A stretch of DNA of 64,000 nt from Pseudovirgaria hyperparasitica (Eukaryota): NCBI GenBank assembly GCA_010093815.1, contig ML996584.1. One strand, given 5' to 3'. Made by a program: the position numbers and the translations under genes. Positions within the stretch are counted from its first letter, which is position 1; every line of letters begins with the position of its first letter. The notes below the pieces were generated by a model. The model saw only the letters and a program-made list of their open reading frames with translations. It was not told the DNA's origin and did no database searches. Shown here in pieces: positions 42,949-48,700 of the stretch.

Positions 42949-43464
42949 TCAAGTTCTGTCCATGACTTGGTCCTCTCCATGATGCTCGTCTTGTGCGGCC
43001 TCCTTGGCTTGCTCGCGCTCTCGTTTCTTCGACTGTGGTTCAATGCCGCATGGCATCCGCTTCTCCGCGGTACATGCCCGACAACGAACGACGAGGACAT
43101 CTGCTTTGGACTTTCGACCCCCTCTGCTTTTGTTTTCGATGTGAGAACTCGAGGTGATCCCAGGAATAAGTAGCGTGTCGCACCGCTTACATATGGAGCG
43201 CTTCAAATCCTTTGATAGACGCACGAGAGTCTTTTGCGATACAGCTTTCAGATCCATCATAAGCCTTTGAGACAGTCTGGTACTATACGTTGAGACTGAA
43301 CTCTCGGCGGACTTATTAATATTGCATGACTCCGATTCTTCTTTGCTTTCGGATTTAAGTTGAGCGCTTCGCACAGCCAAGTGGCACCCAGCTTGCTGAA
43401 GGAAAGATATCCTAGAATGAACGTGTCTATTTGGTACCTTGGTACCTTTGGTTTTCCTTGCCAT
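42949..43464 (-). CDS. RPR2: RNase P subunit Rpr2/Rpp21 (or Snm1-like)
   Basis: HSRISFL.QA, K..VRLSKDLKRSICKRC..LLIPG and a second C..C pair (CRAC) forming a zinc ribbon. Confidence 0.85.
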   Translation of the reverse strand: MARKTKGTKVPNRHVHSRISFLQQAGCHLAVRSAQLKSESKEESESCNINKSAESSVSTYSTRLSQRLMMDLKAVSQKTLVRLSKDLKRSICKRCDTLLIPGITSSSHIENKSRGGRKSKADVLVVRCRACTAEKRMPCGIEPQSKKREREQAKEAAQDEHHGEDQVMDRT

Positions 43465-43876
43465 AGAAACGTGCGCGGCGTTTGCAGCTTAGAACGGTGT
43501 TGAAAATGGCGCGTTGCAATAATTAGCAGAGCTCAGTGAGCACGGACCTCGCGATATCCCTTCACGTGACCCCTTAGCGTACTGCTCCTGCTTTTCAGCC
43601 CATCTGTTGCGCCCACCAACGCTTTCTTCCTCGCTGCCTCCCTCCCACCTCTCAGCGTCATTTGCTCCACCTCTACTTTCTTCCAACCCTCCTCATCTCA
43701 CCGATATTTCGGCGGTGGTGAGACTTTCGTACTTCGCACACTCAACAAAAAGCCTTCTCTACTCGGGAGACGGCCTTGCAGGTTTTCTGCGCGCCCTCGC
43801 TTCGAACGTCGCCTTTACGGTAAACAACAGTTGCAGGACCTTCAAATCACGCAACTTCATCGTAACCGACGCCAAG

Positions 43877-45741
43877 ATGTCTCACGAAGAGGACCTCATC
43901 GACTACGATGATGAGGAGTTCCAGAATGAGGCCCCTGCCAACGCAGCGACCGGAGCAGCCAACGGCGAGCAGAAAAAAGGCGACTTGATCGTCAGTGGAG
44001 GTGATGCTAAGGGCAGCTACGTCGGTATCCACTCAACGGGTTTCCGAGACTTTCTCTTGAAGCCGGAGCTTCTACGCGCCATTACAGATTGCGGTTTCGA
44101 ACATCCTTCGGAGGGTTAGTCACTCATTCCCATCAAGCATTTTGCCCTCTTCCTAGGCGCCCGTCCACATCTGCGACCTAGTCCACGAGCAAAAAAAAAG
44201 AGTCAATATCGAGGCGATACAAGTCTATCCAGAGTAGCTGGATGTTTGGCGGTTGAGCATGTCGAGATCATGTAAACCTTTTTGTCGTTTACCGCCCGAA
44301 ACCTATATTCATATCTCGCTCCTCAGCGCTTTGTATGGGTTGAACCCTAAAGACATGCGGCGTGGAAAAAAAGCTGGTCGGTGTCAATAAGACGATCTGA
44401 GCAGCTTGTTGACCTTGGGTCTCTCGTTGTGGTGAAGAATCGCATGCAAGGCAAGATGGATAGACTCGTGGACTTGCAGATTGGACTGGGCGCCGCGCCC
44501 GAATGCTTCTATCGCTTCTCTTGCTACGATCGTATCTAACATCCGCCTCTCGAACAGTCCAGCAAGTGTGCATTCCTCAGGCTATCCTCGGTACCGATGT
44601 GGTCTGCCAGGCCAAGTCCGGTCTTGGTAAGACTGCAGTCTTCGTTCTGGCCACCCTGCAGCAGCTCGAGCCAGTCGCCGGCGAAACCTCAGTGTTGGTT
44701 ATGTGCCATACTCGCGAACTTGCATACCAGATCAAGAACGAATATGCTCGCTTCACCAAGTACCTTCCCGAGGTCAAGATTGCCGTCTTCTACGGAGGTG
44801 TCAACATGCAGAAGGACATCGACATCATCAAGAACAAGGATACCCATCCTCACATTGTCGTTGCCACGCCTGGAAGACTCAACGCTCTCGTGCGCGACAA
44901 GCACCTTCGCTTGGGAAACATCAAGCAATTTGTCCTCGACGAGTGTGACAAGATGCTTGATCAGATTGGTGAGTTTGTTGCAGTGATTTGAATTGTTCGG
45001 GATGGTTTGCTAACCCGGGCACTAGATATGCGTCGCGACGTTCAGGAGATATTCCGTGCGACGCCAACTCAGAAGCAGGTCATGATGTTCAGCGCCACCC
45101 TGTCCCAGGAGACTAGGCCCGTCTGCAAGAAGTTCATGCAGAACCCTCTCGAGATCTATGTCGACGATGACACGAAGCTGACCCTTCACGGCTTGCAGCA
45201 ATACTATGTCAAGCTGTCGGAGAGTGAGAAGAACCGTAAGCTCAACGAACTTCTTGACACTCTCGAGTTCAACCAGGTCATCATCTTTGTCAAGAGCACG
45301 ATTCGTGCCACTGAGCTGGACAAGCTCCTGAGAGAGTGCAACTTCCCCAGCATTGCTGTCCACTCGGGCGTACCCCAGGAGGAGCGGTAAGTCGGACCAA
45401 GTCGTGGAGTCGTGCAATTGCTAATTGAAAGTAGGATCAAGCGATACAAGGAATTCAAGGAGTTCAACAAGCGTATCTGTGTTTCTACCGATGTGTTTGG
45501 ACGAGGTATCGACATTGAGCGTATCAACCTGGCGATCAACTACGACTTGCCAGACAACGCTGACTCATACCTCCACCGGGTCGGACGTGCAGGACGATTC
45601 GGTACCAAGGGTCTATCAATCTCGTTCGTCAGCAGCGCAGAGGACCAAGAGGTGTTGAAGTCTGTTGAGAAGCGGTTTGAGGTTGCACTTCCCGAGTTTC
45701 CCGAGGCCGGTATTGATGCCAGCACGTACATGGCCTCATAA
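43877..45741 (+). CDS. SUB2: DECD-box RNA helicase Sub2/UAP56 (mRNA export)
   Basis: Exons 43877-44114, 44558-44968, 45026-45386, 45435-45741. Motifs: [68 protein letters not shown]. Confidence 0.97.
44156..44494 (+). other. Putative structured RNA element inside SUB2 intron 1
   Basis: The 5' and 3' arms of the intron are complementary over several nested helices (details in findings). Confidence 0.6.
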
Positions 45742-48700
45742 ACGCGGCAAGATGACGCGACGACAGAGGCGTGAGCAAGATACAAAAAGGCGTTTGAAAC
45801 AATTCTTCACATGCGCGAATGCGTTGCAATTTGTCGTTTATTGGCTTGACATGTACTCTACACTCATATACTTATCTTTTGTGGATGGGATGAACGGATC
45901 GTGCCGGTCCACTGGGGCGCACCAGGACTCTCGTCCCGATGCTTTATGTACTAGAGTAGAGCGCGCCGGATAATTCAAATGATTTGCAATGTAACGAGGG
46001 TCTGCGAAGGACATGTGTGACTTGGTATACACGTGAATGACATGACTGACCGGCTGGCTGACTGACTGACTACAGGTCACCAGAGCCCTGACTTTGGAAG
46101 TATGGTGGTATCTGGTCATGTCTAATGTAGTGTGTAATTAATTGGTCGAGCTGGGATTTTAGACGATAGGATAACTATATCAAAAAGACTTATCAATACT
46201 ACTAATTACTGTAGATAGCGGAGATGACGGCGGTGATGACCAAAAACAAAACCATGCCGAATCTGGAGTCGTCTGTCTGGCTGTCTGTCTGTCTGTCTGT
46301 CTGTCTGTCTGCCCGGACAGCCAGCGAACCGCGAGTCAGGCACATCCATGCACCAAAACCCGACCTGCCCACGGTAGGCCAACCAACCACTACCATCCCT
46401 TTATTCACAGTGGGCATGAAGACAGACATGTCTGGTCTCCCAGGCAAATTAGTGATTGTGGTCGTCGCCTAGGATCGATGCTTTGTGACTGACTGCACTC
46501 TGTGCCATGACTAATTATGGCTCGTGTTGTTGTTGTCGTCGTCGTCGTCGTAGTAATGGATCAAATGTCCACTGCCGCTGAACTGTTGTTTGGCCTGGCA
46601 TGCGCGCAGTCAGGGGAGGGGGGAGGGGAGGGCATTCATGTATCCAAATATCTATCTGCACATTCGAATATCCATGGAAGTCTTTGCAGTCTGACGACTT
46701 GTTACAAAATGATGCGCTGGCACATGCGCAGCTATATACTGCCTGGTCTTCGATGGGCGTGAGAGAGAGAGAAAAGGTGGAAAAAGAGAGGCAGTTAGCA
46801 GCTAGACCCAGCTGCGGCTTAGCTACTACGTAGGTACTGTCGGGTGGGTGCAGCGGGGCAGATTGAGGCGGCTAGACAGGCTAGAGTAAGCTGTCTTGCC
46901 TGTCAAAGCTGGCAGCCCACACTACTGCCAAGTACTAGGTATCAACCCACGCGTAGAGCGGTCTGCATAGGTAGGTAGGTAGGTAGGTAGGTAACGTAGG
47001 AGGCTCCAGCACTCCAGTACCTATAAAGAGAAAGCTTAGGTACAGTGACAAGCCACCACCACCACCACCACCTACCACCAGCGGACATGCGCACAGCCCA
47101 GGAAAAGCCATCGCTTATGGCTAGTTTCTAGCATGCGTGTGTGCGTGTGTGTGTGCGTGTGTGCAGTATACGATCAAGACGCAAAAACCGGATTTTTATT
47201 CTCTATATTTTGTTTTTTTTGGAGGGGGTTTTTAGGTTTTTGAGGCTTCTTCCAAACCAACGCACTAGGGTAGTTGCCAGCCAACGAAGGTCGATCCTTT
47301 GTGAAAGAGTCGTTGTTGGAAGAGCGGTCAGTAGGGGGCTGGATTGGAGTAGATTGGAGGATTGTGGGATTGGGTTTTGGGGGTGAGGGAGAGGGAGAGG
47401 GAGTAGGACAGTTGGAGGTAGCACTATAGTATATACAATCGCAAGCAAGTACTTATAAGACACAAAACAGACAATTAGCACGACGTAGAATATTCATGAT
47501 CCAGTGTACTATATGCAGTCTAGCGAAAAGCTCTGCAATAGCAGTAATAAAAGAAAGTGAGAGACGAGACGAGACCACGATGTATAATGTGGTATGATGT
47601 GGTAAAGTGGAGTCGAAACTTGTACAGTACATGTAATTATCTACGCCGGCCCGCCCGCCGCCGCCATGGACGAAAAACCGGCTTGCACCAATTAATTAAA
47701 AAAACGAAGAAGAAAAAGCCAAAAAAAAGGATGAAATTTCAGGAACAGGCACAGGATCACGAACAGGGAGGGAGGGCTGATACAGATTTTGGCTCCGTTT
47801 CCCGCATTTTCACGGGACATGGGAAAGTTCGCTCGTATACGGACGGCACAGCAAGCTATAGCCTTTTTCCTAGTCACTATTCATCGATAATTATCATCCT
47901 TATTATCGTTGTTATTCTTATTATTATTATGATTATTATAATGAACGGGCCCGTGTCGCGTCACGTCACGTCGCGTCGAGAGTGTTGGCGGGTTACTGTA
48001 GTTGGCAATAAATAGCAAGGAATTTGATTATCCATTGCAGATCTAATTAGTCTTGGCTCTGCGCACATACCCTACCTGCCTACCTACCTACATGCAGATG
48101 CAGCCAGTTGAGCGGGAATCAAGGTTTATGGCATTCCGCGATGCACGATAGGACAGGTCGGGATAGGGGGGCAGTCATCAGTCAGTCAGTCGGTGAGGTG
48201 GGTGGAGCCCAAGCTTGCTGTGCTGCGGGAGGATGATCATCGACGTGTTTTTGGCATTGGCGTGGCTGCTGGGTGCTGGGTGCTGGGTGCCTGGCTGTGA
48301 ATGGATCGTGTGTCGTCTTATGGTTGTTGTTGTGGAATCGGAGAGCGAGGTGGGTGTTGATGGATGATGGGTATATGGATGGATGACGATGTGACGCGCG
48401 CTTGTAGACGGACGGACGCCCGTGTATACTACTGAGGTTCGTTGGGTCCCACGCCTCTTTTGTCTGCTGCTATATTGACACCACACACTACACACCACAT
48501 AATACAAAAGCACATCATACAGAAATCCTGAAACCACAATTACCGTGAGCAGGTATTTATTGGTGGTGGTGGTGTGCATGTAAGGCTTCCCTTCCTTGCC
48601 TGGCTGGTCTGGTCTGGTCGTCTATGTTATCGATAACAGGCAGCTCCACTACTTATCCATCCCGCTCGCAGTGGGTGGAGAAAAACCATCGACATGGGGG

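Follow-up and report, generated by a model that had tools for sequence, protein, structure and literature searches.

A long-range stem in the first intron of a fungal SUB2/UAP56 gene as a probable conserved zipper stem

The SUB2/UAP56 locus

The window analyzed here is a 64,000-nucleotide (nt) stretch of Pseudovirgaria hyperparasitica DNA (contig ML996584.1 of assembly GCA_010093815.1), and it holds a gene for the DEAD-box helicase SUB2/UAP56 whose first intron is predicted to fold into a long-range RNA stem. This stem is probably an evolutionarily conserved zipper stem, that is, a long-range RNA duplex acting as a structural splicing element. The gene is read from the + strand in four exons, with its ATG at 43877 and its stop codon at 45739–41, and specifies a product of 438 amino acids. 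The product of exon 2 matches solved yeast SUB2 (5sup) at E 1.6e-61 and human DDX39B/UAP56 at E about 1e-59, while the next DEAD-box helicases reach only ~5e-24.

Contigs from two runs of the same organism and one sample, X3 and X4, which are taken as RNA-like solely from their spliced contigs, join across all three introns of the gene. The gaps that they skip are GT..AG gaps of 443, 57, and 48 nt, and the bounds of intron 1 are therefore placed at 44115–44557. A preliminary description of this locus had contrasted a first intron of 443 nt with other SUB2 introns of ~50–60 nt, and the spliced contigs agree. The exons, introns, and splice signals are as follows.

43877..44114, + strand: SUB2/UAP56 exon 1, 79 codons plus 1 nt (read and translated; spliced junction in X3 and X4 contigs)
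44115..44557, + strand: intron 1, 443 nt, phase 1, ..HPSE/V (X3 and X4 contigs skip 443 nt, GT..AG)
44115..44120, + strand: 5' splice site GTTAGT (sequence)
44534..44540, + strand: branch-point box ATCTAAC, branch A at 44539, CTAAC at 44536–40 (sequence; unpaired probability 0.88)
44555..44557, + strand: 3' splice site CAG (sequence and spliced contigs)
44558..44967, + strand: exon 2, region of DEAD-box motifs I–II (translation, match to SUB2 structures)
44968..45024, + strand: intron 2, 57 nt (spliced contigs)
45386..45433, + strand: intron 3, 48 nt (spliced contigs)

The long-range stem of intron 1

The stem consists of five helices (H1–H5) with 36 pairs, all of them standard and one of them a G–U. 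Its helices and the segments that they bound are given below; the 5' and 3' cores named there are the conserved arm sequences described in a later section.

44156–62/44488–94, + strand: helix H1, pair probability 1.00
44163–67/44482–86, + strand: helix H2, pair probability 0.98
44169–75/44475–81, + strand: helix H3 (ATCTGCG/TGCAGAT), pair probability 0.99
44180–89/44465–74, + strand: helix H4, 10 bp, 100% complementary (AGTCCACGAG / CTCGTGGACT), pair probability 0.85
44224–30/44458–64, + strand: helix H5, 7 bp (5' strand TCTATCC), pair probability 0.95
44121..44155, + strand: 5' linker, pyrimidine-rich, single-stranded with respect to the main stem (sequence, minimum free energy structure)
44156..44175, + strand: 5' arm of H1–H3, within which 44160–44172 (CCCGTCCACATCT, CCCGTCCAcATCT) is a diverged copy of the 5' core CCGTCCATCT (complementarity, alignment)
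44190..44222, + strand: one-sided purine-rich bulge including an A9 run at 44191–44199 (sequence)
44231..44457, + strand: looped-out interior (cannot be aligned to other lineages)
44458..44464, + strand: 3' strand of H5; 44455–44466 (AGATGGATAGAC) is a second core-like copy (complementarity, MAFFT)
44475..44494, + strand: 3' arm of H3–H1, within which 44478–44490 (AGATTGGACTGGG, AGATtGGACtGGG) is a diverged copy of the 3' core AGATGGACGG (complementarity, alignment)
44495..44533, + strand: 3' linker, pyrimidine-rich (sequence)

The ensemble probabilities of H1–H5 (0.85–1.00) are the same when 100-nt exon flanks are added, and the stem is present in both the minimum free energy (MFE) and the centroid structure of the window intron. 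Helices H1–H3 make 19 bp with 2 bulged bases, the addition of H4 brings this to 29 bp with 6 bulged bases, and H1–H4 alone contribute –49.8 kcal/mol. All of the helices proposed in the preliminary description occur in the sequence at the coordinates given for them, except that base 44465 had been assigned to two helices at once; the inner helix is correctly 44224–30/44458–64. The interior hairpins that were proposed along with them do appear in the MFE structure, and nothing was found to indicate that they are conserved.

How far the stem exceeds chance depends on what is compared. The whole-intron MFE beats its shuffles only modestly (z –2.10, with 3 of 100 as good), and a crude duplex test of 150 x 150 nt left 15 of 1000 shuffles as good. 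Duplex prediction on arms of 150–260 nt extends greedily and is a poor statistic, and the arms were paired in anchored windows instead. In a test confined to the position of a zipper stem, the duplex has –63.8 kcal/mol against –38.9 +/- 6.4 kcal/mol in shuffles (z –3.87), and none of 300 shuffles was as good. The expectation that the intron would fold better than shuffled controls is thus modestly borne out for the intron as a whole and clearly so at the zipper position.

The stem starts at 44156, which is 41 nt from the donor (counted from 44115), and its end at 44494 leaves 44 nt to the branch A, much as in the original estimate of ~40 unpaired nt on either side. The accompanying claim that the folded intron has an ordinary effective length is likewise supported, the long-range structure being real and thermodynamically dominant.

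Orthologous introns

Related loci were fetched from metagenome contigs by means of the exon 2 product, which gave 80 loci with 77–88% identity across all 138 residues. From their short introns with CTAAC-type branch sites, we infer that they belong to filamentous ascomycetes. Twelve of the 80 were too short upstream for intron 1 to be assessed. In 66 of the 68 assessable loci, intron 1 sits at the identical codon in phase 1 (HPSE/V) and is 424–706 nt long. Intron 2 is present in 78/80 loci (median 53 nt) and intron 3 in 59/73 (median 55 nt), both scored by exon-end peptides since tblastn reads through short in-frame introns. Intron 1 is about nine times the length of its neighbors in all related genomic loci. 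In two related loci (L045 and L067) the complete coding sequence is uninterrupted by introns 1–3; these are spliced contigs that stem from RNA, or else genes that lack introns. The SUB2 gene of Saccharomyces cerevisiae is not known to contain an intron.

With the window included, 67 intron-1 sequences were reduced to 51 distinct introns (the window and 50 non-redundant others) in ~21 blast clusters. Their donor hexamers are GTCAGT in 26, GTTAGT in 23, and others in 2, and the branch box TCTAAC/TCTGAC is conserved in their alignment. The intron interiors cannot be aligned between lineages; a blastn comparison of the window intron with the 50 orthologous introns returned a sole match of 32 nt at the 3' end of L025.

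Conserved arms at a conserved distance from the splice signals

An alignment of the terminal 140 nt at either end of each cluster representative brought out two mutually reverse-complementary blocks, GTCCGTCCATCTC on the donor side and GAGATGGACGGAC on the acceptor side, and the full MAFFT alignment (A1) displays the same two conserved blocks. The complementary cores (5' CCGTCCATCT, 3' AGATGGACGG) were found and paired in 45 of the 50 non-window introns, using 10-nt cores with at most 2 errors, and in these 45 they lie at the center of helices of 19–35 bp with –32 to –55 kcal/mol. Across ~18 intron lineages a core of 10–13 nt per arm is nearly invariant, and exact GTCCGTCCAT occurs in 35/51 introns. 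In full-length ensembles, pairing between the two cores has a probability of at least 0.8 in 38/46 introns, which cover 15/18 lineages.

The window arms were anchored by hand on the H1–H5 pairing, a fuzzy-motif search having misplaced the 3' arm. Just 5' of the H4 strand lies AGATGGATAGAC (44455–44466), which MAFFT matched to the conserved 3' core in place of the outer arm. This segment pairs with GTCTATCC as H5, and could in principle be an alternative partner for the 5' arm.

The geometry of the element is retained along with its arms. Among 46 introns the distance from donor to stem has a median of 42 nt (range 37–106), that from stem to branch A a median of 41 nt (30–80), and the total linker a median of 82 nt (68–186), with 29 of the 46 inside the published zipper range of 42–85 nt. 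The loop spans 174–515 nt in the same introns and intron length tracks it closely (r 0.97), such that variation in intron length falls wholly inside the loop; the loop is never lost. Of the conservation that was sought in orthologous introns, that of the arms is present: they are kept in position and sequence in 45/50 introns, with flanks that pair in a lineage-specific manner (see below).

Sequence features outside the duplex recur as well. In most lineages the 5' arm is followed by a stretch rich in purines and in A, to which the A9 run of the window belongs; its composition is conserved among 18 lineage representatives, with A at 0.38 vs 0.23 and purines at 0.64 vs 0.51 (Wilcoxon p 0.0002). 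Both linkers are pyrimidine-rich in the orthologous introns, and the 5' linker is conserved past the donor hexamer (GTCAGTCATAAC TTTYC TCCCC AAGCTCC) over its first ~35 nt (A1 columns 1–90; 44121–44155 in the window). Linker–linker pairing showed no lineage-specific signal, with 3519 of 10000 permutations as low for own versus swapped partners, and an 8-bp linker duplex of the window (CAAGCATT/GAATGCTT, –7.9 kcal/mol) was set aside as unsupported by this comparison. Given that the linkers are conserved and yet do not pair in a lineage-specific manner, contact with a protein or a small nuclear ribonucleoprotein is the likelier reason for their conservation.

Conserved pairing or merely conserved sequence

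A nearly invariant core offers little room for compensatory change, and evidence for pairing as such was therefore sought beside it. The 13 core pairs are 85–95% paired in A1 versus 0.33–0.44 when partners are slid by 1–3 columns, a control that is biased by the way in which the structure was derived. The flanks next to the core differ between lineages yet stay complementary, as in CATCTTTGCA/TGCAAAGATG, CATCTCAGAA/TTCTGAGATG, and CATCCCACAA/TTTTGGGATG, and in ATCTGCG/TGCAGAT of the window. These flanks are out of register in the columns of A1, and a register-free test was applied in which, with one representative for each of 18 lineages, the own 3' flank was compared with the flanks of other lineages over 10000 permutations.

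For the inner flank (16 nt), own partners reach –7.11 kcal/mol versus –5.22 kcal/mol for swapped ones; 22–32 of 10000 permutations were as low, against 1435 for the reversed-strand control and 85 when the window was left out. For the outer flank (10 nt) the values are –4.99 versus –2.80 kcal/mol, with 1 of 10000 as low, 100 for the reversed-strand control, and 1 without the window. Such pairing of the flanks is taken as genuine, if informal, evidence of compensatory evolution.

Spliced and unspliced RNA

Contigs can give neither RNA levels nor ends, but they do show which forms are present. A 502-nt contig of X3 (44085–44586) spans intron 1 together with 30 nt of each exon, and so an unspliced form exists; carrying both exon junctions, this contig represents pre-mRNA. 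Of the RNA evidence that the preliminary description had suggested looking for, an unspliced intron-1 form is thus present in the contigs. An intron contig of X4, 424 nt long, runs over 44115–44533: it reaches from the intron's first base to a point 6 nt short of the branch A and includes no exon sequence. Intron-1 contigs occur in both X3 and X4; introns 2 and 3 are only joined across, although contigs show presence and not absence. Word depth, available as one figure per contig and thus a poor measure of level, is 368 and 148 for the intron-1 contigs and 2646 and 1346 for exon contigs. Were intron 1 retained, translation would reach an in-frame stop within 4 codons in 42 of the 51 introns and within 35 codons in all of them.

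Two further runs from other organisms, X5 and X7, cover parts of exon 2 only and hold no orthologous intron. In one X7 contig the 15 letters before the acceptor resemble the end of the window intron.

Intron 1 as a probable zipper stem

Zipper stems have been described in Saccharomyces cerevisiae introns, among them that of RPS17B/RP51B (Rogic et al. 2008, PMC2536676; Rangan et al. 2025, PMC12350175). The latter defines them by a total linker of 42–85 nt and a helix of 6 bp or more in which no more than 5 nt are bulged. The window stem falls within this definition in its donor-side and branch-side distances (41 and 44 nt); its total linker of 85 nt is the upper limit of the 42–85 range (80 nt to the start of the ATCTAAC box), and H1–H3 offer 19 bp with 2 bulged nt. 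We consider it likely that intron 1 of SUB2/UAP56 carries an evolutionarily conserved zipper stem. The stem probably lets this long intron be spliced, and it may in addition give the cell a means of adjusting the helicase level.

In the proposed mechanism, pairing of the arms would loop out the interior, such that the spliceosome would see ~82 nt between donor and branch point. The folded span is that of an ordinary short fungal intron, for which reason the spliceosome could define the intron. Where the stem failed to form, the intron would stay long and be poorly spliced, and the unspliced RNA would reach an in-frame stop within a few codons. Given that an unformed stem would lead to poor splicing and an early stop, stem formation would be a natural control point for SUB2 output.

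Several observations weigh against this interpretation. The total linker lies within 42–85 nt in only 8 of 18 lineages and measures 86–186 nt in the others. The core stem is not favored in the ensembles of a GC-rich long-loop lineage, c2 (probability 0–0.42), nor in L026 (0.0) or L061 (0.25), and 5 of the 50 orthologous introns (L009, L010, L013, L030, and L036) have no recognizable core; these five form other long-range stems of –32 to –38 kcal/mol, with GTCT/AGAC-type repeats, further from the splice signals. Of 21 lineage representatives put through the position-specific shuffle test, only 8 reached z < –2 (the mean being –1.24), and three long-intron lineages score worse than their own shuffles. 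No formal covariation was found: the paired fraction on fixed MAFFT columns is 0.685 versus a shuffle mean of 0.689, a column-wise count that neither supports nor contradicts pairing because the core is almost invariant. RNAalifold predicted 0 pairs on A1, an alignment too gappy for the result to be informative, and the outer-flank signal is partly compositional, given its reversed-strand control. Finally, a pure spacing role leaves unexplained why the loop is never deleted and why both arms are conserved in sequence. Sequence conservation of the arms together with a loop that is never lost suggests that some factor recognizes the duplex, or that a delay between transcription of the two arms is needed.

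The best reading is that the element extends zipper stems to a new gene and clade, with a core unusually conserved in sequence. According to Rangan et al. (2025), yeast zipper stems are only 20–30% conserved in sequence and patchy among orthologues (PMC12350175). The likeness to them lies in the positional definition, into which the window stem falls at 41 + 44 = 85 nt. The gene is a different one, however, the lineages appear to be filamentous and not budding-yeast ones, and the element is known here from prediction and conservation. In addition, the zipper stems studied to date are those of budding yeast, which evolve fast and are rarely conserved, whereas the SUB2 core, in arms of GTCC/GGAC repeats, is nearly invariant.

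Were the interpretation as a zipper stem correct, it would place an element conserved in sequence and position, at nearly every related locus examined, in a clade with introns of ~50 nt and in the gene of a helicase that couples splicing to export. This would provide a natural test case for two questions: does splicing under intron definition need long-range intron structure, and do components of TREX beyond Yra1 and CHTOP control their own abundance by way of an intron?

Alternative and extended explanations

The splicing sensor put forward in the preliminary description would extend the zipper-stem reading. In such an autoregulatory sensor, excess SUB2 or a TREX partner would bind or melt the conserved duplex or block its co-transcriptional formation; the intron, then behaving as one of more than 400 nt, would be retained, and loss of the transcript through its early stop would close a negative feedback loop. 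Such a sensor would account for several features: a core duplex conserved in sequence beyond what pairing demands (exact GTCCGTCCAT in 35/51), which suggests a specific factor; a loop that is never lost; the unspliced form in X3 with its early stops; and the conserved purine/A-rich tract beside the stem. As a whole the sensor is a possible explanation but a distinctly less probable one than the zipper stem. A duplex of 29 bp and –50 kcal/mol is far beyond DEAD-box unwinding, and no conserved, mutually exclusive alternative structure was found among the introns; linker–linker pairing was no lower than expected from swapped partners (3519/10000). DEAD-box proteins could hardly unwind a formed 29-bp duplex processively, and a factor would therefore have to act before stem closure. 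SUB2 feedback through the stem is nevertheless plausible. In its most specific form, which we hold with more reserve still, the nearly invariant 13-bp duplex (GUCCGUCCAUCUC/GAGAUGGACGGAC) would be a feedback sensor on the TREX helicase, conserved across filamentous ascomycetes, in which loading of SUB2 or a partner on the nascent 5' arm and its purine-rich neighbor would decide whether the stem closes during transcription of the loop. If so, an open stem would leave what otherwise functions as a short intron long and unspliceable, with an immediate stop codon, and the loop would be kept long since it sets the time window for the decision on stem closure. The precedents for such feedback, two export-factor genes and a yeast zipper stem, are taken up below.

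Other explanations assign the stem to a product or an origin of its own. That the excised intron is itself the product, with the stem stabilizing a lariat or linear intron RNA that acts in trans, e.g. by titrating a factor, appears improbable. The intron-1 contigs have depths of 368 and 148 beside exon contigs at 2646 and 1346, and the X4 contig of 424 nt without exon flank compares with a predicted lariat loop of 425 nt, a weak hint given that contigs do not show ends. Depth is a poor measure of level, however, the X3 contig with its two exon junctions is pre-mRNA, and the interior is unconserved between lineages, unlike a trans-acting RNA. A host intron for small nucleolar RNA (snoRNA), or a hairpin precursor of small RNAs, would fit a long intron in a highly expressed housekeeping gene, and vertebrate DDX39B introns do host snoRNAs. 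Still, the earlier suggestion of a processed intronic non-coding RNA or snoRNA is not supported, and this reading is now very unlikely. Comparison with Rfam 15, whose coverage of fungal snoRNAs is incomplete, found no match at E<=1 in 43000–47000 of the window and none at gathering score in the 84,748 nt of 20 orthologous loci. Box C is absent and CTGA occurs only once per strand, leaving no pair of C/D boxes, and no interior block is conserved, or can be aligned, across lineages. Equally slight is the chance that the arms are the relic of an inverted-repeat transposon (a miniature inverted-repeat transposable element, MITE), or two opposed protein-binding motifs at the DNA level, with no RNA function. 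The two inverted arms of ~34 nt do enclose ~275 nt, and the sequence of both is conserved, as is expected of binding sites. A MITE is disfavored by the lack of a second copy in the 64-kb window and of any duplication beside the arms by eye, as well as by the finding that the core occurs 16 times (at most 1 substitution) in 286,734 nt flanking the orthologous introns, where ~17 are expected by chance, and never as an exact copy; the element is orthologous, not dispersed. DNA sites, for their part, would explain neither the kept distances to donor and branch point nor the partner-specific flanks. An ancient transposon origin of the element may be entertained, but it would concern its origin and not its present function.

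Relation to autoregulated introns and structured-RNA catalogues

The closest model for a zipper stem as a control point is RPL7B, whose own product is reported to keep a zipper stem from forming such that splicing drops (bioRxiv 10.1101/2025.03.14.643126). RPL7B has a conserved alternative protein-binding structure and a non-consensus branch point, whereas in the SUB2 intron no conserved alternative structure was found, the branch box is consensus-like (ATCTAAC), and regulation is hypothetical. Among export factors, intron-dependent autoregulation of yeast YRA1 involves modular intronic elements, export, and decay by Edc3 (Dong et al. 2010, PMC2864733), and CHTOP protein binds its own mRNA to bring about intron retention with nonsense-mediated decay (PMC5175361). 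The likeness to SUB2 is that each gene encodes a TREX factor for mRNA export, has a single intron of unusual length, and carries early stops in its unspliced transcript; the difference is that no long-range conserved stem is described for YRA1 or CHTOP in the abstracts of these papers.

Conserved intronic structures have likewise been found by comparative genomics in catalogues of structured fungal RNA (Li and Breaker 2017, PMC5640933; Gao, Jones, and Rivas 2021, PMC8216456) and in Rfam 15. The terms SUB2, UAP56, helicase, DEAD, and 'mRNA export' are absent from the main texts of PMC5640933 and PMC8216456. More generally, no description of a structured SUB2/UAP56 intron was found in the literature searched, the scope of which excluded subscription journals and supplements.

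Further observations on the intron and its surroundings

The arms are built of GTCC/GGAC tetranucleotide repeats, which would permit slippage of register. The 5' arm holds GTCCGT, one position off the donors GTCAGT/GTTAGT, while the complementary ACGGAC of the 3' arm is similar to the branch motif CTGAC/CTAAC. This resemblance to splice signals may be a coincidence, or it may be a clue to the origin of the stem or to sequestered cryptic sites.

Inside the loop, a hairpin with the loop TTTCGRC (e.g. CTGTATTTCGACTGCAG or GTGCTACATTACGGCTGTAGCAC) recurs in several lineages, with stem changes that keep pairing. It was seen in L002, L003, L004, L014, L016, L018, L019, L028–L040, L058, and L061 (A1 columns ~470–505) and was not recognized in the window. 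A second long-range interior helix, GAAGTCTC/GAGACTTC, occurs in 18/51 introns and in clusters 0 and 1 only, at positions ~103–126 and 238–264. It extends to GGCGG/CCGCC in one cluster and to GATCGATCC/GGATC.GATC in the other, and L023 has a compensatory pair in it (GATGTCTC/GAGACATC). This helix may be homologous to H5 of the window.

Outside the intron, microsatellites lie 3' of the gene: (GACT)n/(CTGA)n, a (CTGT)9-like run, and a (GTC)n run, at 46050–46080, 46270–46312, and 46530–46555.

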